Part shown: positions 2,412-22,176 of the stretch, one piece after another
How positions within the stretch are numbered: position 1 is the first letter of the stretch
Layout: each line of letters begins with the position of its first letter
NCBI GenBank assembly: GCA_034659295.1
Contig: JAYEGX010000055.1
Location: 9,726-73,725 of the forward strand
Direction: 5' to 3'
Origin: Candidatus Altiarchaeota archaeon
GTDB lineage: Archaea; Altiarchaeota; Altiarchaeia; IMC4; QMZM01
Length of the DNA stretch: 64,000 bases
Notes under the pieces: generated by a model
What the model was told of the DNA's origin: nothing
The model's database searches: none
Seen by the model: only the letters and a program-made list of their open reading frames with translations
Position numbers and translations under genes: made by a program

Positions 2412-2475
2412 TTTCTTACATCAACAAAATAAAAGAATATATTAATAATATGAATAGAGAATAAAATAGATTAAT
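2412..2475. promoter_or_regulatory. AT-rich divergent intergenic region with TATA-like boxes for eif5a (minus) and the GH5 gene (plus)
   Basis: Sequence ...aaaagaatatattaataatatgaatagagaataaaatagattaat ATG. AATATATTAATAAT lies about 25-40 nt upstream of the plus-strand start. Confidence 0.35.
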
Positions 2476-6435: not shown

Positions 6436-6460
6436 ATAGAAAACGTTTATTTAGATTAAC

Positions 6461-8608
6461 ATGGCTCAATTAAACAAAAAAGTATTTGGTTTATTGTTGA
6501 TTATTGCTGTGGTCATGTTTTGTTCAGGTTGTGTGAAAAATAGATCGCAGACGCCAACAGAAACCACTCAGCCCCCGTCAACAAAACATACTCTTGGCCC
6601 AGGTGATTACAGGTTCACAATCGAACATCAGGGAATGGAAAGATTTTATTTAATGCATGTTCCAAAGGGTTATGATAGTTCCATCCGAAATCCATTAATT
6701 CTTGCTTTCCACGGAGGGCTTGGAAATGGGAAGATTATGAGTGAACACTATAATTTCATAAAAGAATCAGATAATGAAGGATTCATTGTTGTTTTTCCAA
6801 GCGGGGCTAGCAGGTTTAAGGATAAACTTGCAACATGGAATGCAGGCGTATGCTGCGGGTATGCAGTTAAAAGCGGTAGTGATGATGTTGGTTTTGTGAA
6901 AAAAATCCTGAAAGATGTTGAAAATAAATTCAGTATTGATGAAAACAGGATTTACGCAACAGGGATGTCAAATGGCGGGATGTTCTCATACAGGCTCGCT
7001 TGTGAAATGAGTGATGACTTTGCCGCAATCGCATCTGTTGCCGGAACCAAAAACACCATCTCATGCAATCCCTCAAGACCCGTACCTGTTCTGCATATCC
7101 ATGCCGTAGATGACGACCATGTTTTATTTGAAGGCGGGTGCGGTCCAGGCGGTACTACCGGTGTTGATTATAGTTCAGTGCCTGAAACAATAGAGTGGTG
7201 GGCTGAAAAGAATAAATGCGCAAGGGATAAAGTAAGGGTTTTTGAAAACAACGGAGCGTACTGTGATTCCTACAGTGATTGCGCAAAGGATAGTGAAGTT
7301 AGATTATGTGTTACAAGCGAGGGAGGGCATTCATGGCCAGGAGGACAGAAACCAAGACCAGAAGCAGACACCCCATCAACTGCTGTTAATGCAACAGAAA
7401 TGATCTGGGAGTTTTTCAAAAAGCATCCGATGAAGAGACTCCAACGGAACGTAGACGATTTCAGAACACTCAAAAAAGGAATGAGCTATGATGAGATGGT
7501 AGCCCTTGTTGGAGAGTCCGATAGAGACATAGGGTCAGGCATCCATATCTATCTCTATGAACTATCTGATAAATCTGAAATTATTGTGGGGGGATTTGTG
7601 GGCAGCGGGTTAATGTACGTCAAACAAAAAATTTCTAATGGCACGTATGCGGATATCATAGGATTTGGTCCCGGAGATTACGACTTTTCTTTAGATCATG
7701 ATGGATTAACGAGAAAATATATTGTTCATGTCCCTCACTCCTATGATAATAAAACCCCAACCCCCGCTGTAATAGCCTTTCATGGCGGGGGCGGAAACGC
7801 TGAACGCAGTGTCGAGTATTTTCGATTAAATGATAAATCCGATGAAGAAGGATTTATTGTTGTGTACCCTGAAGGAACTGGGAAAATTGTCAAGGGGGAA
7901 GTGTTTGGTTCATGGAACGCCGGCAGATGCTGTCCTCCCGCAGCGGACAATAATGTTGATGACGTAGGGTTTATTAGAAAGATGATTGAGAAACTAGATG
8001 AAGATTTCAGTATTGATGAAGGCAGGGTTTACGCTACCGGAATGTCCAACGGGGCGCTTATGTCTTATAAACTGGCCTGTGAGCTATCAGATAAGATTGC
8101 TGCAATCGCTCCAAGCGGCGGCCATGACTCGTTTGATGAATGTAACCCATCAAGACCGGTTCCGGTAATGCATTTTCATGGAACCGAAGATCCATGTGCT
8201 TTTTACGAGGGCGGTGAGTGCGGAGGATGCATGTCAGAATTCCTCAGCAAGATGGGGTTACCGGTAAAAACAGGTAAACTATGGGACTGTACTTCAGTGC
8301 CAAACTATATTAACCAATGGAAGCAAATCAACGGATGCTCAGATAAGACAGAGATCACCTTTCAAAATAGAAACGCTACCTGCGTTACCTACCAGGAATG
8401 CCAAGACAATGCGGAAGTAACTTTATGCACAATAGAGGGTATGGGCCATACCTGGCCTGGTCGTACGACGTATAGCGCTGAAGCATGTAAAACACGTCCT
8501 AATGGTTATATGTGCAGGTTGTGGAAGGAGGCAGTGGGAACTCTAAGTGATGACATAAACGCCAACGATGCCATGTGGGAGTTTTTCAAAAAACACCCTG
8601 AAAAGTAA
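6461..8608 (+). CDS. Secreted lipoprotein with two tandem alpha/beta-hydrolase esterase domains (PHB-depolymerase/LpqC-like), each followed by a Cys-rich module
   Basis: 715 aa. Signal plus lipobox (VMFCSGC). Repeat 1 reads ...ILAFHGGLGNG...GMSNGGMFSYRLAC. Repeat 2 reads ...VIAFHGGGGNAE...GMSNGALMSYKLAC. Both have the GxSxG nucleophile elbow and both end in ...MWEFFKKHP. Confidence 0.7.
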   Translation: MAQLNKKVFGLLLIIAVVMFCSGCVKNRSQTPTETTQPPSTKHTLGPGDYRFTIEHQGMERFYLMHVPKGYDSSIRNPLILAFHGGLGNGKIMSEHYNFIKESDNEGFIVVFPSGASRFKDKLATWNAGVCCGYAVKSGSDDVGFVKKILKDVENKFSIDENRIYATGMSNGGMFSYRLACEMSDDFAAIASVAGTKNTISCNPSRPVPVLHIHAVDDDHVLFEGGCGPGGTTGVDYSSVPETIEWWAEKNKCARDKVRVFENNGAYCDSYSDCAKDSEVRLCVTSEGGHSWPGGQKPRPEADTPSTAVNATEMIWEFFKKHPMKRLQRNVDDFRTLKKGMSYDEMVALVGESDRDIGSGIHIYLYELSDKSEIIVGGFVGSGLMYVKQKISNGTYADIIGFGPGDYDFSLDHDGLTRKYIVHVPHSYDNKTPTPAVIAFHGGGGNAERSVEYFRLNDKSDEEGFIVVYPEGTGKIVKGEVFGSWNAGRCCPPAADNNVDDVGFIRKMIEKLDEDFSIDEGRVYATGMSNGALMSYKLACELSDKIAAIAPSGGHDSFDECNPSRPVPVMHFHGTEDPCAFYEGGECGGCMSEFLSKMGLPVKTGKLWDCTSVPNYINQWKQINGCSDKTEITFQNRNATCVTYQECQDNAEVTLCTIEGMGHTWPGRTTYSAEACKTRPNGYMCRLWKEAVGTLSDDINANDAMWEFFKKHPEK

Positions 8609-8636
8609 AAACTGTTGAGGAAGGTATTGTATTAGT

Positions 8637-8764
8637 GAATCCAAGCGCTACAGAATCCCATACCGTTAGTCTGGAAAAAGAATATTATAGGGCTGTTCCC
8701 GCAGGCGGGGGCTTGATTCAAGGAGATGGGACATGTGACAGTTCCCTCACCTGTAACACATGAA
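8637..8764 (+). pseudogene. Decayed fragment resembling the C-terminal end of the GH-like repeat domains of the 2476..6435 protein
   Basis: Translation VNPSATESHTVSLEKEYYRAVPAGGGLIQGDGTCDSSLTCNT. Compare VNPSNKPVEYILGKKYFVVVPKGGGVLEDDGTYGG and VNPFNTAGEIQAPQGYKKIIPHGGGLVDINGKYDG within the upstream gene. Confidence 0.35.
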
Positions 8765-8858
8765 TGATGCGATAATCCTTCAACCAGTAAGCGGGGTTGT
8801 TTTATTATCTGGATGAGAGAGTTTCTTCTTTTAATTCAGGGAATCGAATATTATCTTT

Positions 8859-9447: not shown

Positions 9448-9942
9448 ATGAAAGTCGAGATGGAGATGGGTTTAAAGGATGTGCCTGGCAGCCTTCTCAG
9501 ATCAATGGAACCCATCTCAAAACATGGAGGCAACATCCTAAGCGTTCTGCACCATAGAGGTGAAGCTAATCTGGTGAAGGTTAAGATAGTCTTTGAGATA
9601 AAAGACCAGAAAAGCCTGGAATTAATACAGAAGTCTCTGAGAGAGAATAGGATAAACATGTCAGAAATCTTTGTTGAGGGTAGGAGATACTATGAAAAAA
9701 AAACCCTCTCATTCATATTAATAGGTCACGTAATAGACTCGGATATAAGAGATACCATAGACCAAATAAACGAGATAGGCTGCGTCTCGGATGTGGACGT
9801 GGTGATGCCAGATCCCAAAGAGAAATCATCTGTCCTGATGAAGGCAGACGTAGATAACGGAAGCCTTGATAAAGCGGTTACCGTAATAGAAAAACTATGC
9901 AGGGAAAAGAATCTGGCATTTATTCATTCACTACAGCAGTAA
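9448..9942 (+). CDS. ACT-domain protein
   Basis: 164 aa. GLKDVPGSLLRSMEPISKHGGNILSV matches the ACT ligand-binding fold pattern. It sits immediately upstream of hom, apart from the inserted IS. Confidence 0.5.
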   Translation: MKVEMEMGLKDVPGSLLRSMEPISKHGGNILSVLHHRGEANLVKVKIVFEIKDQKSLELIQKSLRENRINMSEIFVEGRRYYEKKTLSFILIGHVIDSDIRDTIDQINEIGCVSDVDVVMPDPKEKSSVLMKADVDNGSLDKAVTVIEKLCREKNLAFIHSLQQ

Positions 9943-9944
9943 AC

Positions 9945-11245
9945 TACCCACCGTTTAAGGAGGTGGGCATTCCATCAGGAGGTTAGATATCATGCACAGC
10001 ATAATCCAAAACACCGTCATCGGAACGAAAGAGTCCGTTTACAGAGACTCGTCTGCTGGTAAACTGGAAAGAAGCAGATTGGTTAGAAACATGCTTATCC
10101 CGCACCAACAGAGATTTAACAGCGACAGCAAGACTAGCCTTCCTATCGCTATTCACTATCTGACCACAGTTACCACACTTAAAGAGAGCATAGTTGCTGC
10201 TATGCCCTCTCTTAGCCACAGCACCGCAGTGGCTACACCATTTGCTGGTGTGGTAGGCATTAACAAGGTGAAGTCTGATGTTTTTATCGAAGCATCTGCT
10301 TTCAAGAGTTGTTCTAAACAAGAAGGTAGGAATCCTCAAAACCTCTTTATTGAATCTCCTACCCTTGGGCTTGAATCGTGTGAGTTTCTCGATGGCAACA
10401 TCAGCATCGTATTCAACAGCCAGGTTTGTGATGTCTCTCACGACTTCACCTATTCTGTTCCTGACAAAATTTTGTTCCTTAGTCTTGAGTCGGATAAGCT
10501 GTTGCCTGGCTCGGTGGCTTCCCCTGTCTGCGAAACTCTGAAGCCGTTCTCTTCTTTCAAAGATTCTCTTACGCTTAACCCAGATGTCTTTCCCAAGATA
10601 GAGTTGCTTGAGAATCTTCCCTTCTGGGGTGAGAACAGACACGGCGAAGCATTTACTGTTAACATCAACTCCGAGCATATTCCTTCTTATAGGGATTTCA
10701 GCTTCTTTGGAGAGGTATGCGACTATCTGTCCGTCGGAGGTGAGCCCGTAAGTCTTACAGGTCCACCCTCCCTGGAGCAGGGAGCTATATCTCTGGAGGT
10801 TTCTGTTATGCCTGAGGGGGACTGCTGTTCTCTTCCGAGGATACATCCCAAGCTCTATGAAGGTTCTGGTTTTGGTCTGGAAGGTTTTACAGTTCCGAGG
10901 GACATTAAATTTGACGGTGATTGCCTTAAGGTTTGTGCCTTTGCTTCTGACTACACTCCGTTCAATGTCGCAGATTACTTGACTGTTGAAAGAGGTGGTT
11001 TCCTTGCAAGTTGAATACATCGCCTTATGTAAATCCATCAGCTTCTTTGATGTTCGGTTTTTGAGCAGGAGATTAGCGAGAGAAACAGCCTTAATGCTGA
11101 ATTCCTTCAGAATCGCTCTCTTACAGGCTGTTGCATCAGTTTGTAATCGTATTGCACGCTGCATGTTTCTAACCAAGTATATATTAGATTCAGTATTTAA
11201 AGAGGACGTGGCAACTCCTCCCACCCCCAAAGGGGATGGGTCTCC
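9945..11245 (-). mobile_element. IS200/IS605-family insertion sequence, IS1341-like, carrying tnpB only (no tnpA)
   Basis: A single tnpB ORF is flanked by imperfect palindromes that share a CCCACC core. At the 3' side of tnpB, 9946-9972 reads tacCCACCgtttaaggagGTGGGca. At the 5' side, around 11213-11237, it reads tCCCACCCCCaaaGGGGATGGGt. Confidence 0.65.
9983..11164 (-). CDS. tnpB: TnpB (IS605 OrfB family RNA-guided endonuclease)
   Basis: Typical OrfB_IS605 layout with a RuvC-like core. C-terminal zinc finger CSHCGAVAKRGHSSNYALFKCGNCGQIVNSDRKASLAVAVKS (OrfB_Zn_ribbon). The likely true start is MQRAIRLQTDATA at 11164; the track ORF extends to 11257 and overlaps the hom start. Confidence 0.8.
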   Translation of the reverse strand: MQRAIRLQTDATACKRAILKEFSIKAVSLANLLLKNRTSKKLMDLHKAMYSTCKETTSFNSQVICDIERSVVRSKGTNLKAITVKFNVPRNCKTFQTKTRTFIELGMYPRKRTAVPLRHNRNLQRYSSLLQGGWTCKTYGLTSDGQIVAYLSKEAEIPIRRNMLGVDVNSKCFAVSVLTPEGKILKQLYLGKDIWVKRKRIFERRERLQSFADRGSHRARQQLIRLKTKEQNFVRNRIGEVVRDITNLAVEYDADVAIEKLTRFKPKGRRFNKEVLRIPTFLFRTTLESRCFDKNIRLHLVNAYHTSKWCSHCGAVAKRGHSSNYALFKCGNCGQIVNSDRKASLAVAVKSLLVRDKHVSNQSASFQFTSRRVSVNGLFRSDDGVLDYAVHDI

Positions 11246-12262
11246 TTGCCACAACATAAGATGAAAAAAATAAAGCTTGCTATTGTGGGACTGGGCGTAA
11301 TCGGTAGAGGGGTTGTAGAGATACTTTTGGGGAAAAAAGAATTCCTCAGGGACAGGGGGTTGGATTTGGAGGTTGTTGCCTTATGTGAGATAAATGGCAG
11401 CATAGTCTCTGATGGTGGGGTTGATTTGGAGAAGACCTTGGAGCTTGCGGGAAGGGGGGAACTGGATAAACACAAGCAGTGGAGCAGTAGTAAGAGCATG
11501 GAGGTCTTGGGGGAGGTTAATGCAGATATTGTTTTAGAGCTGACTCCGGGGAACATAGACGATGGGGAACCGGGATACAGCCACATAAAGAAGGCCCTAG
11601 GTAATGGAATGCATGTGGTCACCTCCAACAAGCCGCCAATAGCATTACATTACAGGGAATTAGATGAGCTTGCAGGAGAGAGAAATCTAAAATTAAGGTA
11701 TGAGGCCGCTGTTGGAGGGGCTATTCCGATATTAAACCTTCACCAGAAATGCCTGCAGATTAATGAGGTGAGATCTATCTACGGCATACTTAACGGAACC
11801 ACAAACTATGTCCTGAGCAAGATGGTAGAGGACGGCCTCAGCCTGGAGAATGCATTAAATGAGGCGAAAGAACTGGGTATAGCGGAACAGGACCCCTCAT
11901 ACGACATCGACGGAGTGGATACCGCCTTGAAGGTGATTATATTAGCTAATTCCATGCTGGATATGGATGTTGAATTTGGGAACATGAAGATTCAGGGTAT
12001 AAGGGACGTAACCCCCGAAGCGGTGGATTTGGCGAAGAAACACGGGTACGTTATTAAATTAATCGGTGATGTACGCCGCATGGAGGTTTCACCCCGCCTC
12101 ATACCCGTAGACCACCCCCTGAATGTGTCAGACAGCCTTAATGCTATTATGATAGACTCTGATGTCGCCGGAGAACTGACCCTTGTGGGTCATGGCGCAG
12201 GCGCCAGAGAAACAAGCAGCTCGATATACTCTGACGTAATCGAAATCGCAGAAGGGATTTGA
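11246..12262 (+). CDS. hom: Homoserine dehydrogenase
   Basis: 338 aa. N-terminal NAD(P)-binding KLAIVGLGVIGRGV. Catalytic-domain motifs GILNGTTNYVLSKM and ALKVIILANSM. Confidence 0.85.
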   Translation: MPQHKMKKIKLAIVGLGVIGRGVVEILLGKKEFLRDRGLDLEVVALCEINGSIVSDGGVDLEKTLELAGRGELDKHKQWSSSKSMEVLGEVNADIVLELTPGNIDDGEPGYSHIKKALGNGMHVVTSNKPPIALHYRELDELAGERNLKLRYEAAVGGAIPILNLHQKCLQINEVRSIYGILNGTTNYVLSKMVEDGLSLENALNEAKELGIAEQDPSYDIDGVDTALKVIILANSMLDMDVEFGNMKIQGIRDVTPEAVDLAKKHGYVIKLIGDVRRMEVSPRLIPVDHPLNVSDSLNAIMIDSDVAGELTLVGHGAGARETSSSIYSDVIEIAEGI

Positions 12263-12292
12263 TTTTTTTTATTTTTTTGAAACCGGCTTTGC
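12263..12292 (+). terminator. Oligo-T tract terminator downstream of hom
   Basis: gatttttttttatttttttg immediately after the hom stop codon. Archaeal termination typically occurs at T-runs. Confidence 0.4.
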
Positions 12293-12298
12293 ACATTA

Positions 12299-12345
12299 AG
12301 TCCTACTTGCACAAAAAGTCAGGAATCTGCACAAAAAGTCGAGTT
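12299..12345. repeat. Three direct repeats TGCACAwwAAGTC at about 18-20 bp spacing, at the left edge of the low-GC island
   Basis: tgcacattaagtc ... tgcacaaaaagtc ... tgcacaaaaagtc. Seen directly in the sequence. Confidence 0.5.
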
Positions 12346-12350
12346 TTGAA

Positions 12351-12641
12351 ATGAAAGAAAATTTATTGAAACAATATAGAAAAAGGGAGTATGTAGTGTC
12401 TAACTCAGAATATAAGAATCTCAAGAGAATTCTGTTTTTTAAGCATTTATACATAAATCATAATGTTAAGGGTGGTTGCTTTATGATTGATGGTTTTCTG
12501 CATATTGATTATCAGAATACTCCACTTTTTTTTAGGATAAAATCACAATGTTATTTCTTAAAAAACGGTATAAATATTAACTTGTCTGATGTAATCCATA
12601 ATGGTTGGCTTACTCAGGGGTTCAATCATGTCATTAATTGA
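12351..12641 (+). CDS. Hypothetical protein, very AT-rich
   Basis: 96-aa ORF in a low-GC island. No recognisable motif. Coding status uncertain. Confidence 0.2.
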   Translation: MKENLLKQYRKREYVVSNSEYKNLKRILFFKHLYINHNVKGGCFMIDGFLHIDYQNTPLFFRIKSQCYFLKNGININLSDVIHNGWLTQGFNHVIN

Positions 12642-12852
12642 AAAATTTCATGAAAGGGTAGGTCATTTAGTTGAAGGTGATGTCTGGAATAAGGAATACG
12701 CTGAACTCAATATTACTGAAGAGTCACGTGAACTAATCAAGAAGGGAAGAAGGAGATATAGAGGTTCTGTTAGAATTTCAAGGGGATTGTTTCATACGAC
12801 TGAGGAACGAAAAAGATTAATGGATGAACTTTTATCAGCACAGCTTCCTTAA
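12628..12852 (+). CDS. Hypothetical small basic protein
   Basis: ORF MSLIEKFHERVGHLVEGDVWNKEY...KKGRRRYRGSVRISRGLFHTTEERKRLMDELL. The basic stretch suggests nucleic-acid binding. No family recognised. Confidence 0.3.
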   Translation: MSLIEKFHERVGHLVEGDVWNKEYAELNITEESRELIKKGRRRYRGSVRISRGLFHTTEERKRLMDELLSAQLP

Positions 12853-12864
12853 TTCTTTAAAAAA

Positions 12865-13512
12865 ATGTTCAATGCTGAAGAGAAACGAGAGCTTAAAAAA
12901 ATCACTGAGTTGTATGGAGCTGTTAAAACAGTTATATTAAAAGCTGAAGAAATAAGTGGGGTATCCGACACTCAAGTAATAAATGAGTTAAGACATGCAT
13001 TTGACCACTTTATGAGAATAACTTCTGTAAAATTAGAAATCGTTCCAGATGATGATCTAGGAGAGGATTATATCAAGGATAATTTTAAAAAAACTTATGG
13101 GCACGTTTATCGATCTGGATATGATGCATTGGATTGGGTAACGCTTATTATAAGAGATGATATGATAGACATAATGAAACAATTTCCACTTGAAACAATA
13201 AATGAAGTGTGTCCTGAGTATTATAGAGAAATAAAGGCAGATGTAGAACAGATAAGTAATGAGATAGCTTCTATCCGTGCAAAAAAAGATGTCGGAATAG
13301 ACCATTTTGATAATTTTCTAGAATATGTTGAACTAATGAAACGATTAGAAAATCATAATATTACTTTAACTAGTAAAGTTAATGCAATGACTGAATACAC
13401 TGATAAACTAAAAAAAGAAAAGAGAAAAGAACAAATGATTAATATTGCTATAGGTATTGTGATAGGTCTTAGTGTTGGTGGTATTGTCTTTATTGCTTCA
13501 ACGCTTTTGTAA
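12865..13512 (+). CDS. Hypothetical protein with a C-terminal transmembrane anchor
   Basis: 215 aa. Largely helical and charged, ending in NIAIGIVIGLSVGGIVFIASTLL. Island-encoded. No recognisable motif. Confidence 0.4.
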   Translation: MFNAEEKRELKKITELYGAVKTVILKAEEISGVSDTQVINELRHAFDHFMRITSVKLEIVPDDDLGEDYIKDNFKKTYGHVYRSGYDALDWVTLIIRDDMIDIMKQFPLETINEVCPEYYREIKADVEQISNEIASIRAKKDVGIDHFDNFLEYVELMKRLENHNITLTSKVNAMTEYTDKLKKEKRKEQMINIAIGIVIGLSVGGIVFIASTLL

Positions 13513-13622
13513 ACTCAACCACTTGTTCTTACCTAACTTAAATTCTATTCCTACTTGTTATGCTTATATCTCACCTAGCTCTTTTTTTACCACATAATCC
13601 TATCCATTTTTATTAGTAGACT

Positions 13623-13648
13623 ACTAATAGTCTATTAATAGTCTACAA
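13623..13648. promoter_or_regulatory. Perfect 8-bp inverted repeat GTAGACTA(n12)TAGTCTAC immediately upstream of the AbrB-like gene; candidate operator
   Basis: ttagtaGACTActaatagtctattaaTAGTCtac read directly. It ends 2 nt before the ATG at 13650. Confidence 0.4.
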
Positions 13649-13649
13649 G

Positions 13650-13811
13650 ATGACCACAAAGAAAAAAGTCAAAGGACGGCTTATTTTAGAAGAAATTGCG
13701 TTTGATGATGCCGTTAAGAGAACAGTGCATAAGAGCAATAAGAGCAGCGGGAAGATAACCCTGCCCAAAGAGTGGATTGATAAAAAGGTTTATGTTGTTT
13801 TGATTGAATGA
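13650..13811 (+). CDS. Small AbrB/SpoVT-like (swapped-hairpin) DNA-binding protein, or a DUF2080-like transposon-encoded TnpV-like protein
   Basis: 53 aa: [53 protein letters not shown]. The [10 protein letters not shown](D/G)KKV pattern is typical of AbrB/MazE-fold proteins. It is below the ORF-track length cutoff. Confidence 0.45.
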
Positions 13812-13815
13812 GAAA

Positions 13816-14601
13816 ATGAGTGATAACTCCCACATAGAATGGACTGAGGCGACATGGAACCCCTGCACAGGATGTACAAAGATAAGCACCGGTTGCCAGA
13901 ACTGTTACGCTGAACGGCTTGCGATTAGGTTGAAGAAGATGGGTCAGAAGAAGTATCGAAATGGTTTTAAGCTTACAGTTCATGAAGATGTACTCGAAAT
14001 CCCCGAGAAATGGGTGAAACCCCGTAAGATATTTGTCAATTCAATGAGCGACCTTTTCCATAAGGACGTGCCCACAAGCTTCGTCTTCAAAGTTTTTGAT
14101 GTGATGCAAAAAACCGACAGGCATCAGTACCAGGTACTAACAAAAAGACCAGAACGCACGGTAGAACTAAATAATAAACTGCCATGGAGTCCTAACATCT
14201 GGATGGGCGTAACAGTTGAGAATAACGACTATGTACATAGGATAGATTATCTGAGAAAAACCTCGGCCGCGGTGAAGTTTATCTCGTTTGAACCGTTGTT
14301 AGGTCCAATACGAGATGCAGACCTCCAAGGTATTGACTGGGTTATTGTTGGGGGGGAGTCCGGCCCGAATTCCAGACCCATGGAAAAGCAATGGGTTACC
14401 TCCTTAAGGGATCAATGTAAGCGCGATGGCATACCCTTCTTCTTTAAACAGTGGGGCGGTTTTAACAAGAAGGCAAATGGGAGGTTGTTGGAGGGTAGAA
14501 CTTATGATGGGTATCCCAATCAACCAGAGACTAAAAGCACCCTATTCATGCCGGAGTATAATCAGATAATTGCTTCTGCCTGCCGTCTGCAAGAGCATTG
14601 A
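13816..14601 (+). CDS. Phage protein Gp37/Gp68 family (DUF5131)
   Basis: N-terminal signature [31 protein letters not shown] matches the family-defining Cys motif. Length is about 260 aa. The track start at 13804 is a TTG; ATG at 13816 is preferred. Confidence 0.8.
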
Positions 14602-15472
14602 CAATCTCCCGTATCTGGAAGTTTTTCCTTACCCACTCCTTCTTTTGAAGCGCCTCTATTTTAGGCTTTATCTGTTTATGGATGGCGTGAACATTTTTAT
14701 TGTATGTTGCAAAAATTAAGTAATATTGGGGGCTTTTCGTTTCTGTTGAGTAAACATAGTAGCTGCTTGTTAGATACCCAAGGGCTTGTATCTGTCCCAA
14801 AAAAACATTCCTAAACAGTATGTGGCTTTTCCCCTGTTTTTTGTAATTAGGTAATTGCTCGCGCCACGTATCGGTTCCTAAACTCGTAGTGATTAGGTTA
14901 AAGTCTTTTTCTGTGTTTCTCTTTAGGGCCAGAAGCATGGGTTCTATCATGAGATTGATTATTAATTCAGGCTTCCGCCCAGTTTTTTCATCCATAAAAT
15001 TTGCAATGCCCTGTATAGTTGAAAATTTCAATTGGTCATGGTAAAATGGGTCAAGAAAGAACAATGAGGGTCTATTGGGTTTTCCAATTAATTTCAGGAT
15101 TTCAGGATAGCAAATATTTGCGTCGGCGCAGAAAAATTTTTCGACAAAATCTGTATGCTCTTTAAGATTCTCTTTAAGTTTTTCTATTTGCTCAGAATCC
15201 CAATCGTTGAATATGCACCGTAGGTTAAAATTAGCATCTTTAGCATAATCCATCAAATTAAAGTATGGCGGCTTCCAGTCGCGAAGACAATCTCCTGGAT
15301 ACTTCTCTATTAATTCCTCCGGCATTTGACTGCAGGTGCAAGATCCATCTCCAGCAAAAAGATCAACATAAACCAGTGAATGGATTCTGTTAGATTTAAA
15401 GACGTTTTTCCAGACACCAAAATAGTAAGCTAATATCCTATGCTTTATCTTGCTGTGCAGTTTTACATCCAT
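14546..15472 (-). CDS. TcmP-like (three-Cys-motif partner protein) candidate, with methyltransferase-like features
   Basis: 308 aa. N-terminal [16 protein letters not shown]...[10 protein letters not shown] resembles the TcmP partner family that co-occurs with DUF5131 proteins. The family name is given from memory. It is convergent with the DUF5131 gene, and their 3' ends overlap by 56 nt. Confidence 0.5.
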
Positions 15473-15494
15473 TCTATAGCAAGTGGGGTTCTAT

Positions 15495-15683
15495 CTATTT
15501 ATTACTCCGTCGTGTTTTCCAAGCTTTTTTGGCTGCTTCGTGTCTATCGGCTCGGGGTTTATCCCAGTAGGGGCTTTTGCATTTGGGGCATACACGAGGG
15601 ATTTTCTCAGTTCTTGGAAGCCATTCATGACCGCAGCGTTCACAACGATACCCCATCACCTTGATTTCTACCTTTTTTACCAT
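15495..15683 (-). CDS. Small zinc-ribbon protein
   Basis: 62 aa. CERCGHEW...CPKCKS forms a C4 ribbon, and the tail is basic. Island-encoded. Confidence 0.4.
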   Translation of the reverse strand: MVKKVEIKVMGYRCERCGHEWLPRTEKIPRVCPKCKSPYWDKPRADRHEAAKKAWKTRRSNK

Positions 15684-15761
15684 ACTAGTTAGTAATATAT
15701 TCTTTAGTATATAAATATCTAGTAGTTATATACCTATGTAATAATATATTATATAAGTAAA
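15684..15761. promoter_or_regulatory. Extremely AT-rich divergent promoter region with several TATA-like elements
   Basis: tagttagtaatatattctttagtatataaatatctagtagttatatacctatgtaataatatattatataagtaaa. Contains TTTAGTATATAAAT, which resembles an archaeal BRE/TATA. Confidence 0.35.
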
Positions 15762-16102
15762 ATGAGGTTGACGAAGACGAGGCAACTAGAAGATTCTTAC
15801 CCTAGCCTCGGCGAGAGCCTTCACTTTATCCATCTGGTGGCTTCTCGCCTGAGGTGGTACACAGATTTCGCCAACGAGCAAGGATGGGTGGAACTGATTC
15901 CCAGACACGTGGCAGCAGCAGGCACAGTTGGCATGGCCACCCTCTTCGCTCTAAGCTACCTATACACCAGCTGGCGAGGTGACGTGGAATGAAACAAACC
16001 ACTAAAATGAATATTATAAGGCTTGTGTTGGCATTTTTGATAATATGCCTTCTGGCCTAGAAAGGCTTCACTGCCGAAAACACCATCATAGGAGTAAACA
16101 TA

Positions 16103-16369
16103 GTGATAATAATGGCATTAATAACCTACACAAGGAAAAAATACCCCGAAAGATACATGAAAGACGAGAGAACCAAGAAATTATCAGCATACGCCGCATC
16201 AGGGTCATGGCTGATTACATTCATCACAGTAACAATACTATTTTGGATGGATTATGTAGGATACATAGAGTTTAGCGCAAGCCAGATAATAAACATTATC
16301 TTCTGGCTGATGCTCTTATCCATAACGATAACAGGATGGATGGTTTTCAGTAAAGACGATACACAATGA
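16103..16369 (+). CDS. Small 2-TM membrane protein, a frequent partner of XRE regulators
   Basis: 88 aa with two hydrophobic helices ([34 protein letters not shown]). Its stop overlaps the start of the downstream HTH gene (ATGA). Confidence 0.45.
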
Positions 16370-16560
16370 AAACCCGCATCAAGGAATACAGGGCTAGATA
16401 TAATTTAACGCAGGAGGAGCTGGCAAAAAAAGTAGGGGTGAGAAGAGAAACCATAGTATTTCTAGAGAAAGGTAAATACAACCCATCACTGAAGCTGGCA
16501 TACGACATCGCCAAGGTATTCAACACAACAATAGAGGAACTTTTCATCTATGAAGATTGA
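16366..16560 (+). CDS. XRE-family helix-turn-helix transcriptional regulator
   Basis: 64 aa. [39 protein letters not shown] is a canonical Cro/C1 HTH. Confidence 0.75.
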
Positions 16561-16597
16561 TATCCACTTCAGGATCTGCCATTACGTGGCAGAGGAA

Positions 16598-17203
16598 TTA
16601 CTTTAGTTTCCTGTTCTTGGCTCTTAAACTGGGTCTGGCTTTCTCCGCACCCTTCCCTTTCCGGGTGAGGCCCCTGCCCTTTTTACCCGCAGGAGTTAAG
16701 CCCCTAAAGACCCTGTTTCGGTGTTTATTGCTACATATCCAGTTAATCTCGTCATCTCCCTTGATAACCGGATGGTTCGGGTCCACCAAGACCACCTCAT
16801 ACCATCTATACTGCCCGTCTTCCCACAGCCAGTAAGACCCCAAAACCTCCATATTAGTGTAATGTTTCTGGGCTCGCTCCTCAGCAATCCTCTGCTTACT
16901 CTTACCCGGAGTGATCTTTAACTGTCCAGCCCTCTTCGGCCGCCTGCCCTTTTTTGGCCTTGATCTACCCGTAATACCTCTCTTTATTCTCACCCGGGAG
17001 ATAGTGAATCCCTGCTTAGCCTTATAGCCATACTGTCTGGCCCTGTCGATCCTGGTAGGCTTCTCAACCCGCACCACAGAGCGACCTCTCCTCCACCGCT
17101 TCTTTCGCTCAATAAACAACTTTCTCAACTCAGGGTGCTCCGGGCTGGAATATCTCCTGCCGACATCCTTATACAATCCACTGATATATTTATGATAACC
17201 CAT
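16598..17203 (-). CDS. rpl15e: 50S ribosomal protein L15e
   Basis: MGYHKYISGLYKD...RKLFIERKKRWRRG...GYKAKQGF and basic repeats typical of L15e. The track ORF starts 2 codons upstream (MKMGYHKY). Confidence 0.85.
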   Translation of the reverse strand: MGYHKYISGLYKDVGRRYSSPEHPELRKLFIERKKRWRRGRSVVRVEKPTRIDRARQYGYKAKQGFTISRVRIKRGITGRSRPKKGRRPKRAGQLKITPGKSKQRIAEERAQKHYTNMEVLGSYWLWEDGQYRWYEVVLVDPNHPVIKGDDEINWICSNKHRNRVFRGLTPAGKKGRGLTRKGKGAEKARPSLRAKNRKLK

Positions 17204-17288
17204 TTTCAATGAAATAAAAGCATATTGATTTAATTAGTCTAAATATTTATTATTTTATCAATAAAAATCATCTGTCTAGGAGGACAAT

Positions 17289-17912
17289 GTGCCCATAAAA
17301 AAATTAGTGAAATGGTTTAAAGACATATTCGGGAAAAAAAAGGAAATAAGGATTGGATTCTATGGGCCTCCGAACGCTGGTAAAACAACGCTAGCGAACA
17401 AGATTTCTATGGACTGGACAGGGGAGCCGATAGGTAATGTATCTGAAATCCCCCACGAAACCCGCGAAGTGCAGAAAAAAGAGAGGGTTGTTGTCCGGAC
17501 AGGAGATAAAAGCATCACCATGAACATTCTGGACATGCCCGGTATTGCCACAAAAATAGACTACGAGGACTTCATAAAGCGGGGCATGGAAAAAAAAGAA
17601 GCCCAGATAAGAGCCAAGGAAGCCACCAAGGGAGTTATTGAAGCCATCAAGTGGTTGGAGCACGTGGACACAGCCCTAGTCGTTATGGACTCGACAAAAG
17701 ACCCCTACACTCAGGTGAACATCACCATAATAGGGAACCTGGAGGCTAGAGGCATTCCAATAATAATAATAGCCAACAAGCTGGATTTACCCGAATCCAA
17801 GCCAGAATGGATTGAGGAAGCATTTCCACAGCACCCCGTTGTGGAGTTATCCGCCCTAACAGGAAACCACGTTGAGGAACTATATGAGGCCATAGCCAAA
17901 TACTCAAGATAA
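17289..17912 (+). CDS. Small P-loop GTP-binding protein (archaeal conserved GTPase)
   Basis: G1 GPPNAGKTT, G3 DMPG and G4 NKLD motifs. Confidence 0.7.
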   Translation: MPIKKLVKWFKDIFGKKKEIRIGFYGPPNAGKTTLANKISMDWTGEPIGNVSEIPHETREVQKKERVVVRTGDKSITMNILDMPGIATKIDYEDFIKRGMEKKEAQIRAKEATKGVIEAIKWLEHVDTALVVMDSTKDPYTQVNITIIGNLEARGIPIIIIANKLDLPESKPEWIEEAFPQHPVVELSALTGNHVEELYEAIAKYSR

Positions 17913-17913
17913 A

Positions 17914-18285
17914 ATGGAAGTGGAAATAGAGTTCATATCATCCAATGTATTGGAGTCAAAAACAAACACTCAAAGAATGAGTTACATCCTGAACAGGATA
18001 AAAAAAGACAAGATACTCGTCCTCGAGAGAGGTCTTAGCTCATTTGACGAATCCCGGCTTATAGAGGAAACCATGAAGCAGATAGACGAGAAATTCAGCG
18101 GCATAGAGATTTCAACTCTGAAGGAAAACAACGTGAAGGGGGTTAGAAAAAAACTTATACAGATTCTGGGAGGTAAACTTGGCGGGTTGACGGTAATCGG
18201 CCCCTCAAGATTAATCAAGAAAATAAAGAAGGAACCTGAGAGAATATCTCTTTTTGCAGGGGTTAAGGACTCAGGGAGAAAATGA
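17914..18285 (+). CDS. Conserved small cytoplasmic protein co-located with the GTPase (DUF2073-like; tentative)
   Basis: 123 aa with no catalytic motif. Its start codon overlaps the GTPase stop, which suggests translational coupling. Confidence 0.35.
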   Translation: MEVEIEFISSNVLESKTNTQRMSYILNRIKKDKILVLERGLSSFDESRLIEETMKQIDEKFSGIEISTLKENNVKGVRKKLIQILGGKLGGLTVIGPSRLIKKIKKEPERISLFAGVKDSGRK

Positions 18286-19145
18286 ATAACATCCTACAAA
18301 AAAGCATCCGAGAAACCTATCAGTTTGGTTTAAAGAAGAGTAGTATTTACTTTATGGGATTCCTGTTTTTTTTCGCCATATCCCTGTATCTCGTCCTGAT
18401 TACAGCAATAATGCAATATTTCTTTGACTTCCCCTTCAGATGGGATAGCTACTCGATAAATTATATAGTAGGTAAAGGCTGGATGCATATTTCTATGCTG
18501 TTTTTCATGATTTTCTTCAACACGATTATATTCTGCTTTATTGGTGCCTTTTTCACCCTATTATTTTTTCACTCAATAAAAAAAGACGGCTTAGCTGAGG
18601 ACATAAACAACTATCTCAAGTGGAAGAAACTCGCGGAATTCATATACGAGGAATACATAAAAATGCTGCTCTTATTTATTCCATTCACCCTGGTTTTCTT
18701 GATGGTTACCGTAATGTTAAGCCTGCCATCATTTCTACTTTGGGGGGTGTTAGCTCAATCCACCCAAGGAAACAACCTGGTGATTTTGTTTATTGTGGGC
18801 TTATTTGATTCCCTCATTCTATCAGGGATTTTCCTGAAGATAGGGTTTTCCTTTCCCATCATGGTTTACGAGAAAAGAGAGGTGATTGAATCCCTCAAGA
18901 GAAGCGAACGCCTTACCAAAGGCTTTTTTATAGAGATATGGACTACAATAGCATTCTTCATGTTCATTGTTTTCGTGGCTAATTTTCTGGTCAGCTATGT
19001 GGGTATACTCCTAGGATACATGACCCTTTTACAACTCCTATTTAATTCTATTTTGGTTGTGCCCCCTGGTTTCATACTCACAACCAGAATCTATCTAAAC
19101 CTGAAAGGGCTTGCATACAATAAAAATGCCCCACAAATGCGCTAG
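18282..19145 (+). CDS. Polytopic membrane protein
   Basis: 287 aa with 6 or more hydrophobic helices. Overlaps both the upstream and downstream genes (operon). Confidence 0.5.
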   Translation: MNNILQKSIRETYQFGLKKSSIYFMGFLFFFAISLYLVLITAIMQYFFDFPFRWDSYSINYIVGKGWMHISMLFFMIFFNTIIFCFIGAFFTLLFFHSIKKDGLAEDINNYLKWKKLAEFIYEEYIKMLLLFIPFTLVFLMVTVMLSLPSFLLWGVLAQSTQGNNLVILFIVGLFDSLILSGIFLKIGFSFPIMVYEKREVIESLKRSERLTKGFFIEIWTTIAFFMFIVFVANFLVSYVGILLGYMTLLQLLFNSILVVPPGFILTTRIYLNLKGLAYNKNAPQMR

Positions 19146-19509
19146 ATGCAACATGATATATGAGGATAACGCAGAAGAACTATTGGATGGTTGTAGCTGC
19201 GGCTCCCGGGTTTTCCTGTACATCAGGGCGAAAGAGGATGAAAAGACCCATCAGGAGGTGATAGAAGAGCTGAAGAAGAAGAATCTTGCAGAGAATGACC
19301 TGGAGTGGATAGAAGATAGATTCAGTAAAGAGTTAGAGGGGGACGAGAAAACAATCAGTTTAGATGTGGAAAATCTAGCTCAACTGGATAAGGGAAAATA
19401 CAGGCTTGACCTGCCCTCTCTGATGAAAGGCGACCCCCTAGTAATAAAATCCAGAAAAGGCGTGTATTATATAGACATCGTACATGCTATGAAAAAAAAG
19501 AATCATTAG
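19126..19509 (+). CDS. Zn-ribbon-containing protein (DUF2072-like; tentative)
   Basis: MPHKCARCNMIYEDNAEELLDGCSCGSRVF reads as CxxC...CxC. The track start at 19111 is a TTG; ATG at 19126 is preferred. Confidence 0.45.
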   Translation: MPHKCARCNMIYEDNAEELLDGCSCGSRVFLYIRAKEDEKTHQEVIEELKKKNLAENDLEWIEDRFSKELEGDEKTISLDVENLAQLDKGKYRLDLPSLMKGDPLVIKSRKGVYYIDIVHAMKKKNH

Positions 19510-19657
19510 TTAATTATTTCTCCGAATGTAGAGTCCCATCCATAGTGTCACAGCCAACCCATCTATTAAAAAAGCTGAAGCAAGCGTTGAGATAAAGGAT
19601 GTTAGGAGTGAGGGGGATGGTGGAATATAAAGTTTTCCTTCAAATAGATTAAGTGAT

Positions 19658-20992
19658 ATGGCAATTCATCCAATAGAGTCTAGATACGGCAGAGCTGAGG
19701 TAAGAAGGATATTTGATGATGAAACAAAGCTTTCCCGGATGCTTGAAGTCGAATCCGCTCTTGCCCGGGCCCACGCCAAAGCAGGTAGTATCCCACAGGA
19801 TGCAGCGGATGAAATAACAAAAAAAGCAGACATTAGATACGTTAAATTGAAGAGGGTGAAGGATATTGAGGCAAAGATAGATCATGACGTGATGGCTATC
19901 GTCGAAGCTCTTTCTGAGCAGTGCGGTGATGCAGGGAAATACGTTCACCTGGGAGCGACAAGCAATGACATACAAGATACTGCGCTGGCTCTGCAGCTGA
20001 AGGAGTTTATCACCTACCTGAAGAAGGATCTACAGCAGCTTAGGAAGGTAATCATTAAACAGGCAAAGAGACATAAAAACACCGTAGCAATCGGTAGAAC
20101 CCATGGTCAGCACGCTATCCCAACAACCTACGGCCTGAAGTTCGCTATATATGCTGTGGAGATACAAAGGGGTATAGACCGAATAAGGGAGTGCGAGGAA
20201 AGAATCATTGTAGGACAATTGACTGGTGCAGTAGGTACGCAGGCTGCATTAGGGAGAAGGGGTGTTGAGCTGCAAAGGTATATGATGGAGGATCTGGGTT
20301 TAAAACCAGTTAAAGTTTCGAATCAGGTGATTCAAAGAGACAGGCATGCGGAATTCCTCCTTAATCTGGCTTTGATAGCTGAATCCCTGAACAAGATTAG
20401 CACCGAAATCAGAAATCTGCAGAGGACAGAGGTTGGTGAGGTGTCTGAGGGCTTCGGCAAGGATCAGGTCGGCTCCTCAACAATGCCCCATAAGATGAAC
20501 CCCATTTATGCTGAACGTATCTGTGGACTCAGCCGCGTCGTTAAGGCGAACGCGTTTACATCTCTGGACAATATCCCGTTGTGGCATGAGAGGGATCTGA
20601 CCAACTCCAGCTGTGAAAGGATTATTATTCCTGAATCCTGCATCCTTATAGATTACATCCTGAACCTGTCTATCGGATTGATAGATAATCTGGTTTTTAA
20701 CTACGACGCTATAGAGAGGAATCTTTCTTTGACTCAGGGCAGGGTTATGGCTGAGTCGGTTATGGTAGCTCTTGTGTCTAAGGGTTTAGGCCGGCAGGAG
20801 GCGCATGGGTTGACCAGAGACTGCGCCCTCGAAAGCCATCACAAAAAGATAGGGTTCAGGGAAACATTACTGGAGAACAAGGAAGTCAAGAAACTGCTGG
20901 ATGAGGGAGAGATAGACCAAGCCCTCGACCCCCACAGATATATCGGAACAGCAGTTGAACAAGTAGATAGGGTGGTAAAGGAACTGGAATGA
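19658..20992 (+). CDS. purB: Adenylosuccinate lyase
   Basis: 444 aa. Fumarate-lyase signature GSSTMPHKMNP. N-terminal YSRPEM-like region (RYGRAE) and typical length. Confidence 0.9.
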   Translation: MAIHPIESRYGRAEVRRIFDDETKLSRMLEVESALARAHAKAGSIPQDAADEITKKADIRYVKLKRVKDIEAKIDHDVMAIVEALSEQCGDAGKYVHLGATSNDIQDTALALQLKEFITYLKKDLQQLRKVIIKQAKRHKNTVAIGRTHGQHAIPTTYGLKFAIYAVEIQRGIDRIRECEERIIVGQLTGAVGTQAALGRRGVELQRYMMEDLGLKPVKVSNQVIQRDRHAEFLLNLALIAESLNKISTEIRNLQRTEVGEVSEGFGKDQVGSSTMPHKMNPIYAERICGLSRVVKANAFTSLDNIPLWHERDLTNSSCERIIIPESCILIDYILNLSIGLIDNLVFNYDAIERNLSLTQGRVMAESVMVALVSKGLGRQEAHGLTRDCALESHHKKIGFRETLLENKEVKKLLDEGEIDQALDPHRYIGTAVEQVDRVVKELE

Positions 20993-21207
20993 AGATTAAG
21001 GCATGTAGTAGATGCGGTTCAAGAAAACTCACCCTAATGGAACTGTCCAGGGAAAAGGAATCATACCCCCACTCCGAATTAATGGATAATCTTGTGGCAG
21101 TGAGATACCTGTGCGGTGACTGTACATTAATAGATGAACCAGTAGTCTTCAACTCAGAGGAGGACTGGATGGGGTTTCTAAAGATAAGGAATCAATCAAG
21201 AATATAA
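20989..21207 (+). CDS. Small zinc-ribbon protein
   Basis: 72 aa. CSRCGS...CGDC. Start overlaps the purB stop. Confidence 0.4.
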   Translation: MKIKACSRCGSRKLTLMELSREKESYPHSELMDNLVAVRYLCGDCTLIDEPVVFNSEEDWMGFLKIRNQSRI

Positions 21208-22133: not shown

Positions 22134-22176
22134 TTTTTTCCCAGTAAGTCTTATATATTACATATTAGGATTTGAA

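Follow-up and report, generated by a model that had tools for sequence, protein, structure and literature searches.

Pairs of a DUF5131 protein (phage Gp37/Gp68 family, PF07505) and TcmP, the three-Cys-motif partner protein, are found among the PADLOC candidates PDC-M30 (A+B) and PDC-M41 (A+B), which are bacterial and unvalidated; PADLOC PDC systems are guilt-by-embedding candidates only (PMC10855318). RadicalSAM.org puts DUF5131 into Megacluster-5 together with spore photoproduct lyase (PMC9477430), and for S. meliloti, TcmP and the Hna defence helicase have been listed as one putative transcription unit (PMC12445080). Here we describe an archaeal form of this pair. It lies in a 64-kb stretch of contig JAYEGX010000055.1 from a Candidatus Altiarchaeota archaeon (hereafter the window, to whose numbering all coordinates without further label refer), within an island between the convergent housekeeping genes hom and rpl15e (Table 1). 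An initial annotation of this DNA had proposed the whole island as a candidate novel defence or addiction module; the pair has the same two-protein content as PDC-M30/M41 and is hence already catalogued. The archaeal cassette differs from these candidates in its two additional small DNA-binding genes and in the weak match of its TcmP to the A-component models.

We lean towards reading the island as a horizontally acquired accessory insertion in a hypervariable 'safe-harbour' spot, i.e., a stack of three unrelated mobile cassettes, A, B and C, of which cassette B would be an S-adenosylmethionine (SAM)-dependent nucleic-acid modification module in virus-host conflict. Cassette B (13611-15683) is the core of the island; its two transcription units converge, and in each the first gene encodes a small DNA-binding protein.

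Table 1. Features of the island between hom and rpl15e, in window coordinates (ORF, open reading frame).
Feature	Position	Strand	Remarks
Strain-specific island at the convergent hom/rpl15e junction	12264..16592 (4329 bp)	.	insertion relative to L001 and L002
Three direct repeats TGCACA(A/T)(A/T)AAGTC (TGCACAWWAAGTC)	12290..12340	+	spacing 18 and 20 nt; left border, upstream of cassette A
Cassette A conserved AT-rich leader	12391..12600	+	overlaps 96-aa ORF 12351-12641
Cassette A small partner protein	12628..12852	+	74 aa from ATG 12628, or 83 aa from ATG 12601
215-aa helical protein, C-terminal transmembrane anchor	12865..13512	+	large unnamed family, possibly HEPN-like
Nested perfect palindromes	13611..13646	.	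4 nt upstream of the DUF2080-like start codon
53-aa DUF2080/AbrB-like small DNA-binding protein	13650..13811	+	first gene of the DUF5131 unit
DUF5131 (phage Gp37/Gp68 family)	13816..14601	+	NCBI start 13816; TTG start 13804 also possible
TcmP (three-Cys-motif partner protein)	14546..15472	-	convergent with DUF5131, 56-nt overlap
62-aa zinc-ribbon protein ending AAKKAWKTRRSNK	15495..15683	-	first gene of the TcmP unit; profile zinc-ribbon matches
AT-rich divergent intergenic region with imperfect inverted repeat	15684..15761	.	between zinc-ribbon gene and 76-aa ORF
76-aa ORF in GC-rich patch (54.5%)	15762..15992	+	candidate gene
DUF2178-like membrane protein gene	16007..16369	+	in-frame TAG at 16058-16060; 88-aa remainder = ORF 16103-16369
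64-aa XRE-family helix-turn-helix regulator	16366..16560	+	start overlaps membrane-gene stop; PF01381 HTH_3
Hairpin CTGCCA-TTACG-TGGCAG	16576..16592	.	island right border; read from sequence; absent from L001

We scanned one genome per species with the Hom protein and obtained two related loci, i.e., Candidatus Altiarchaeales ex4484_2 (L001; Hom 90% identical, about 89% nucleotide identity to the window) and an unclassified archaeon metagenome-assembled genome (MAG; L002; Hom 84% identical). In blastn, positions 11261-12263 (hom) and 16593-22176 (rpl15e, a GTPase and others) align contiguously with L001, and synteny breaks exactly at the island borders. The hom–rpl15e spacer measures 4329 bp in the window, 191 bp in L001 and 87 bp in L002, and the three spacers are mutually unrelated. 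A scan of metagenomes with Hom added one short contig only, L094, which matches the window for 22 nt beyond the hom stop codon (a T-rich run followed by GAAACCG, to 12285) and then diverges. Since L001, L002, L094 and the window each differ at the junction, it is, as far as these sequences tell, a hypervariable cargo hotspot with at least four states, at a point where two convergent housekeeping genes face each other with their 3' ends. It resembles the variable defence and cargo hotspots between bacterial core genes, where a conserved junction holds different cargo in each strain and no dedicated recombinase is present. The hom–rpl15e case differs in lying in an uncultivated archaeal lineage, with four states sampled, and the before/after comparison shows a cassette moving as cargo in such a lineage. 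The L094 contig comes from another Altiarchaeales population; at L094 1449-1558 a different AT-rich ORF (MELEINNKIKDRNKIILTGIITVL...) begins right after the same terminator-like T-run of hom, and the contig ends within it.

Searches for signs of an integrative element were negative. No integrase family was matched in Pfam and NCBIfam profile searches, no tRNA was found in the whole 64 kb, and no border repeat or target-site duplication of 11 nt or more was present at the island edges; the island thus has neither an integrase or recombinase, nor a tRNA or att target, nor flanking direct repeats. Rfam gave no match over 12000-17300 at E≤1, and a scan for sigma-70 promoters and intrinsic terminators, models unsuited to an archaeon, stayed at chance level. 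The island would represent cargo gathered at a recombination-permissive junction, and because neither recombinase nor repeat is present, it was most likely exchanged via homologous recombination through the conserved flanks. The initial annotation had proposed a foreign, strain-specific island with defence-island-like content and without an integrase at 12263-16597, to be compared with a possibly empty junction in relatives. Blastn against L001 reproduced these borders within a few bases, the island is absent from both relatives, and the lack of an integrase extends to tRNAs and flanking repeats. The foreign, strain-specific nature and the defence-island-like content are supported, and the DUF5131/TcmP pair matches PADLOC candidate models.

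The cassettes recur separately in other genomes and we hence describe the island as a mosaic and not as one system. Cassette A (12391-13512) occurs without B in L011, L012 and L097/L098, beside a transposase in L011 (IS6/IS240-type) and in L097 (DDE), and cassette B occurs without A or C in L003-L010 and L013, Thermoplasmatales, MSBL1 and Altiarchaeia included. That the 4.3 kb form one coherent system of many genes for defence or addiction, the candidate novel module of the initial annotation, would agree with the contiguous genes, their two common borders and their joint absence from L001 and L002. It is largely refuted by the separate occurrence of cassettes A and B, which were never found together in any fetched locus. 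Moreover, the three blocks differ in GC content (0.28-0.37 for A, 0.38-0.46 for B and 0.37-0.40 for C, plus a patch of 0.545) and in orientation, with separate promoter and operator regions, and one gene contains an in-frame stop. We therefore consider a single system very improbable.

The DUF5131 protein of cassette B matches PF07505 along the whole profile (residues 8-238 to profile positions 1-243 of 243) with E 4.6e-103 and 344.4 bits against a threshold of 28.9. It also matches PDC-M41B (E 5.5e-119), PDC-M30B (1.2e-115) and phrog_2045 (5.8e-99), and its match to 'radical SAM mobile pair protein A' stays below the cut-off. In 65 aligned homologues from Altiarchaeia, Planctomycetota, Chloroflexota and cyanobacteria (60-74% identity), the cysteines C20, C27 and C30 (Cx6CxxC), the GGESG motif and C201 are invariant; the extra Cys17 of the window protein is not conserved. 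The Gp37/Gp68 assignment with its three-Cys N-terminal signature, made at first sight of the sequence, was thus correct. Searches of sequence and profile against PDB chains gave no meaningful match. The AlphaFold2 (AF2) model of DUF5131 (pLDDT 85.8) is nearest in fold to spore photoproduct lyase (E 4e-4, TMq 0.47), followed by LipA and MiaB, and viperin is also among the matches. In the model the Cys triad sits at the mouth of a partial TIM barrel, and a GGE-type SAM-binding motif is present. From this model we predict DUF5131 to be a radical-SAM-superfamily enzyme, in agreement with its placement in Megacluster-5.

Spore photoproduct lyase, a radical SAM DNA repair enzyme (PDB 4FHC/4FHG), is hence both the nearest solved fold and a member of the same megacluster, with a partial TIM barrel and an N-terminal Cys triad in both proteins. 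In contrast to DUF5131, which has 261 residues and a Cx6CxxC motif, the lyase has 340 residues and a CxxxCxxC motif; identity is 14-16% at TM-scores of 0.4-0.47, and no PDB chain is matched at the sequence level. DUF5131 is among the most widespread and conserved uncharacterised proteins of phages and defence islands, with over 8000 close homologues scored, which are 62-76% identical across phyla.

TcmP, for which methyltransferase-like motifs had been noted at the outset, matches TIGR04474 with E 7.4e-33 and 114.6 bits against a cut-off of 53 (residues 6-271 to profile positions 2-261 of 263). Its matches to the PADLOC A components are PDC-M30A (E 5.7e-12) and PDC-M41A (9.6e-09). The SAM motifs YvDLfaGdG, ND, DAN and DP..H are conserved in 55 homologues; they comprise D37/G41/G43, N89-D90, D117-A118-N119 and D141-P142. 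As with DUF5131, sequence and profile searches against PDB chains gave no meaningful match. The AF2 model (pLDDT 93.2) shows a class I SAM-methyltransferase fold with an extra helical and beta C-terminal region. In Foldseek, 194 PDB chains match it at E≤0.001; SAM-dependent methyltransferases make up practically all of the 50 listed. We hence predict that TcmP has the class I methyltransferase fold. Neighbours in the PDB and among viral structures include COMT-like, Hen1, Trm1, Trm13-like and DNA C5 methyltransferases at TM-scores of 0.4-0.55. As these span small-molecule, RNA and DNA methyltransferases, the substrate class is not narrowed by them.

The tail-to-tail overlap of the two genes was confirmed at 56 nt (14546-14601). 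It exceeds the 4-17 nt of relatives because DUF5131 of the window has a poorly conserved, low-confidence C-terminal tail. Suggested already with the initial annotation, a comparison with PADLOC was made with the component hidden Markov models (HMMs), outside PADLOC's own system rules and thresholds. The PDC-M30 and PDC-M41 components match the adjacent genes, with E values of 1e-115 to 5e-119 for the B and 6e-12 to 1e-7 for the A components.

TcmP adjoins a PF07505 gene also in L003-L010, L013 and L095. Identities to the window proteins are 76% (DUF5131) and 68% (TcmP) for L010, and 74% and 51% for L013. Against L003, L004, L006 and L009, whose DUF5131 belongs to a CxxxCxxC subfamily, DUF5131 is 28-29% and TcmP 47-49% identical. 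Judged by the comparison with an actinophage (53% for DUF5131, 21% for TcmP; see below), DUF5131 is slow-evolving and TcmP fast-evolving, and TcmP can pair with different DUF5131 subfamilies. Such an asymmetry, with a slow enzyme and a fast partner that changes the enzyme subfamily, points to TcmP as the specificity component. In the Altiarchaeia locus L013 the neighbours of the pair are an EcoRI-type methylase, a GmrSD/HNH gene and a DDE transposase, and in the MSBL1 locus L004 they are an integrase and an N6/N4 methyltransferase; DDE transposases adjoin the pair elsewhere.

DUF5131 is also frequent in viruses, often together with TcmP. It has at least 591 matches in IMG/VR, and of the 80 viral loci examined, 37 have a TcmP-like ORF next to it (18 convergent, 13 upstream, 6 downstream). 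Moreover, DUF5131 is encoded by 176 cultured phages; most of them infect Mycobacterium or Gordonia, and haloarchaeal and methanogen viruses are also among them. In the temperate Gordonia phage Angelique, gp42 (DUF5131, 53% identical to the window protein) is convergent with gp43 (annotated 'methyltransferase'; TcmP by HMM, E 3.9e-18; 21% identical), with a short 3' overlap. On the strand it shares with the immunity repressor gp44, gene 43 follows immediately downstream, and the integrase is close by. A position beside immunity repressor and integrase is typical for lysogenically expressed accessory or defence genes of actinophages. In contrast to cassette B, the phage pair adjoins the repressor and lacks DUF2080-like and AAKKAW-tail genes.

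The archaeal form carries a small gene ahead of either enzyme gene. The 53-aa protein ahead of DUF5131 matches the DUF2080 families NF033496 (34.1 bits, cut-off 22) and PF09853 (22.7 bits, cut-off 21.5), with its C-terminal 21-22 residues alone aligning. This C-terminus looks AbrB-like. It had been described as an AbrB/MazE-fold protein behind a perfect palindrome; the palindromes stand as described, and the family is DUF2080, with the AbrB likeness of the fold read from the sequence. The nested palindromes, TATTAGTAG-A-CTACTAATA, GTAGACTA-N15-TAGTCTAC and TAGACTA-N4-TAGTCTA, are likely an operator. A protein with a homologous C-terminus is encoded upstream of DUF5131 in L010. No association of DUF2080 with a transposase was seen, as the gene precedes DUF5131 in both loci; the nearest transposase gene in the window, TnpB (9983-11257), lies 2.4 kb off, beyond hom.

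The zinc-ribbon gene ends 23 nt ahead of TcmP. Of the several small zinc-ribbon proteins initially annotated, this one was retained by profile matches. The divergent region next to it is probably the promoter/operator of the zinc-ribbon/TcmP unit. A small gene ending in AAKKAWxTR(R/K) precedes TcmP in all nine archaeal loci with upstream sequence (eight distinct, as L008 is the same DNA as L013). Its N-terminal domain is ribbon-helix-helix (RHH)-like in six loci, by eye from the sequence, and a zinc ribbon in three, and six-frame translations of the fetched loci and of the window contain no further copy of the motif. A fixed tail on a swappable DNA-binding domain suggests that the tail contacts the protein machinery of the cassette and, as it is kept while the domain is exchanged, it may dock onto TcmP. 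The tail, located at 15498-15536 in the window and upstream of TcmP in L003-L009 and L013, was seen only before archaeal TcmP genes. The layout, i.e., a small gene followed by TcmP, convergent with a DUF5131 gene that itself follows a small gene, was found in Thermoplasmatales (L003), MSBL1 (L004), archaeal MAGs (L006, L009) and Altiarchaeia (L010, L013 = L008). This four-gene archaeal form of the DUF5131/TcmP kind is a conserved architecture with swappable regulators.

With moderate confidence, we propose from these results that a radical-SAM enzyme and a SAM-binding partner act jointly on nucleic acid, autoregulated by two small repressors, in virus-host conflict. Unit 1 would run from the palindromic operator through the DUF2080/AbrB-like protein to DUF5131, unit 2 from the zinc-ribbon protein with its AAKKAWxTRR tail to TcmP, and each small protein would repress its own unit, that of unit 2 possibly docking onto TcmP by its tail. 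DUF5131 would bind a [4Fe-4S] cluster via Cx6CxxC and SAM via its GGE motif, and carry out a radical reaction on a base of the nucleic acid, much as spore photoproduct lyase, the protein closest to it in structure, acts on DNA. TcmP would bind SAM in its intact class I methyltransferase site and complete or direct the modification of the same substrate. The substrate is probably DNA, given the analogy to spore photoproduct lyase and the neighbourhoods of restriction-modification and phage DNA metabolism genes. Cassette B might thereby mark DNA or RNA, or confer immunity. Type II restriction-modification systems with controller (C) proteins show a comparable arrangement, with convergent enzyme genes, small DNA-binding regulators and palindromic operators, and share with cassette B a SAM-dependent methyltransferase fold, mobility and a defence-island neighbourhood. 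In contrast, no nuclease domain was detected in cassette B, its second enzyme is radical-SAM-like, and antagonism between the enzymes is not indicated.

Toxin-antitoxin-like addiction is the main rival to this proposal. Cassette B would then be an addiction or abortive-infection (Abi) module resembling two toxin-antitoxin pairs, in which DUF5131 and/or TcmP are toxic when unrestrained, e.g., by damaging or hyper-modifying host nucleic acid, and the small proteins are antitoxin-like repressors whose tails neutralise the enzymes. The position of the small DNA-binding proteins (AbrB-like, RHH or zinc ribbon), 4-23 nt before the enzyme genes, is indeed the classic type II antitoxin layout, the retention of the AAKKAWxTR tail on changing DNA-binding domains would fit, and cassette B adjoins transposases and integrases. 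However, bacterial and phage pairs lack the small genes; no KAWxTR motif was found in the 80 viral loci, and the small proteins are hence not intrinsic to the pair. Also, the high conservation of DUF5131 across phyla is more what one expects of an enzyme with an unchanging substrate than of an arms-race toxin. We therefore regard addiction as rather unlikely and retain joint nucleic-acid modification as the proposed function of cassette B.

Cassette A begins with an AT-rich leader behind the direct repeats of the left border. The repeat motif has no other copy in the 64-kb window and is absent from L011; it is possibly an operator. Positions 12391-13449 are 72% identical in nucleotides to the metagenome contig L011, where the same genes adjoin the IS6/IS240-type transposase. 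In the 96-aa ORF, about 83% nucleotide identity to L011 over 85 aligned codons comes with 14/13/16 substitutions at the three codon positions. Without an excess at the third position, this ORF is probably non-coding. The leader itself (L011 132-341) is about 83% conserved between these two unrelated metagenomes without a coding-type pattern, and could be a regulatory RNA or leader. In RNAalifold all 17 variable positions keep pairing, a result that is non-discriminating with two sequences. The small partner is 82% identical to its L011 counterpart in amino acids, with codon-position substitutions of 11/6/28, indicating purifying selection. It has no family match in profile searches including Pfam, PADLOC, NCBIfam and PHROG. 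Homologues lie directly upstream of genes of the 215-aa family in L011, L012 and L097/L098, and recurrence in the latter two supports the 74-aa start at ATG 12628.

The 215-aa gene is coding by its substitution pattern against L011 (74/47/117). An exhaustive profile search collected 874 representative clusters at E≤0.001 (673 at E≤1e-10), nearly all with about 215 residues and a C-terminal hydrophobic anchor. Of the three ORFs initially reported without motif, the 96-aa one shows no coding-type pattern. The 215-aa protein belongs to a large unnamed family without a curated match. In 127 aligned members H48, H80 and R83 are invariant; in the R43-x4-H48 stretch, a candidate for the Rx4-6H motif of HEPN proteins, the histidine is invariant and the first residue is R in 79% and K in 12%. 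No curated family reached threshold, those of the HEPN clan included, and sequence and profile searches against PDB chains gave no match. The sole recurrent matches, all sub-threshold, were to families of the HEPN clan: HEPN_Apea (E 0.012) and DUF4145 (0.04), both with the family consensus and spanning the RxxxxH stretch, and further ones to HepT-like_2 (0.047), AbiD (0.0024), Csx1 (0.0054) and Cas13a. Some relatives carry an N-terminal TIR or TIR-TPR instead of the anchor (P0274, from a 16-member cluster), and the TIR-fused relative P0298 also matches the PADLOC 'TIR-TM' model in its N-terminal part. The literature on TIR-TM gave annotation mentions only.

A HEPN-like toxin or Abi protein is a plausible reading of this sequence pattern. 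Cassette A might then be a two-gene unit of toxin-antitoxin or Abi type, formed by the small conserved protein and the tail-anchored, possibly HEPN-like protein. With HEPN toxins and Abi proteins (AbiD/F, HEPN-MNT, Apea-like HEPN, DUF4145) the 215-aa protein shares its helical nature, the R-x4-H stretch, invariant His and Arg residues, weak HEPN-family matches, TIR-fused relatives and a small upstream partner. It differs from them in that no match reaches the family threshold, the Rx4H arginine is not invariant, the C-terminal membrane anchor is unusual and the partner is not an MNT. The unnamed family with its TIR fusions is a separate lead towards a new immune-type domain. A wider proposal is that DUF5131 and TcmP form an uncharacterised radical-SAM nucleic-acid-modification immunity system of phages, bacteria and archaea, whose archaeal form is controlled by two small repressors, one docking TcmP via AAKKAWxTRR, and that the 215-aa/74-aa pair represents a new widespread HEPN-like membrane Abi or toxin-antitoxin family (874 clusters, TIR-fused members); we put this forward tentatively, as a possibility. 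L011 carries the copy of cassette A closest to that of the window; at L011 2612-2947, beyond the IS6/IS240-type transposase, a ParB-like nuclease-domain protein was recognised by eye (GHYRLQAAKELGW), with a 102-nt stretch about 70% similar to the window zinc-ribbon gene region 15552-15653.

Between cassettes B and C lies the 76-aa ORF. It has no family match in profile searches, no relative in the fetched loci and no Rfam match, and RNA folding of its region gave z-scores of -1.5 and -1.3, which are not significant. The 231-nt patch it occupies stands out at 54.5% GC against AT-rich surroundings, with ORFs that overlap on the two strands. Cassette C (16007-16560) would consist of an XRE regulator and a decaying DUF2178-like membrane gene. 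The regulator had been recognised correctly (PF01381 HTH_3, E 3.7e-18, 65.7 bits against 23). The membrane gene, first taken for that of a protein with two transmembrane segments, is probably a DUF2178-like gene broken by the in-frame TAG. Its frame reads MNIIRLVLAFLIICLLA*KGFTAENT..., where TAG follows a 17-residue hydrophobic N-terminus and cuts off a putative first helix. The PF09946 DUF2178 match starts at profile position 33 and has 15.3 bits, below the threshold of 22.8. The interruption could mean a pseudogene, a sequencing error, or a shortened protein with an internal start.

The broken gene, the 96-aa ORF that is not coding-like, the lack of an integrase and the high frequency of DUF5131 in viral contigs and cultured phages, often with TcmP, would all suit a different origin, in which the island is the decaying remnant of an integrated virus or mobile element without current host function and DUF5131/TcmP is a leftover viral DNA-modification (anti-restriction) module. 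However, the island contains no viral structural, replication or integration gene, and the archaeal TcmP subfamily was found neither in IMG/VR (pattern scan) nor in INPHARED phages (tblastn). Moreover, the cassette B genes are intact, the four-gene cassette is conserved in several archaeal chromosomes, and the small partner of cassette A is under purifying selection. We hence judge a remnant to be unlikely and maintain the view of the island as acquired accessory cargo.

Several points weigh against this view and the modification function proposed for cassette B. Many phages carry DUF5131 without detectable TcmP, e.g., Che9c, where gp68 (DUF5131) has no such partner amid RecT, RusA, DNA methylase and replication genes; DUF5131 may therefore have a stand-alone role in DNA metabolism. 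The fold matches are distant (TM about 0.4-0.5) and define the superfamily, not the substrate, and at E 5.7e-12 the TcmP match to the PADLOC A components is weak. Literature searches on DUF5131, TcmP, PF07505 and PDC-M30/M41 returned annotation mentions only, with no functional study or experiment on the pair. Gain in the window, as opposed to loss in the relatives, is the polarity we infer, and no recombinase or target-site duplication accounts for the arrival of the island. For cassette A, the HEPN matches all lie below threshold.

In 500-bp windows over the 64 kb, GC averages 0.453 (SD 0.043) and falls below 0.34 only in those starting at 12201-13301. The lowest value, 0.298, belongs to the one at 13001 and is about 3.6 SD below the mean. 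The initial annotation had seen a low-GC island of about 4.3 kb. Truly low GC is limited to the left 1.5 kb or so (30-33% vs 45%), i.e., the left third. Genes to its right span 0.37 to 0.545, with DUF5131 at a native-like 0.449, TcmP at 0.380, the zinc-ribbon gene at 0.46, the 76-aa ORF at 0.545 and XRE at 0.40. Separate origins of DUF5131 and TcmP were considered from their GC gap and rejected, because the L013 pair shows the same difference (0.441 vs 0.389), which hence is no sign of separate acquisition.

Two other regions of the window vary between strains. An IS200/IS605-type element (9938-11260), with a 424-aa TnpB ORF on the minus strand that contains a Cas12f1-like TNB domain (E 1.1e-11), sits exactly where, in L001, the stop codon of an ACT-domain gene overlaps the hom start; the two genes split by it are probably translationally coupled. 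L001 carries end fragments only of the same element (L001 16729-16984), and the corresponding site of the window (22176/22177) is empty. The second region, at about 2434-8808, lies between the aIF5A and dCMP deaminase genes. L002 lacks 2469-8808 entirely, and L001 lacks about 2434-6455, with part of the remainder inverted (7697-8601). Its products, judged by eye, include a secreted protein of 1319 aa that looks like a glycoside hydrolase and a duplicated lipoprotein of 715 aa that looks like an esterase.

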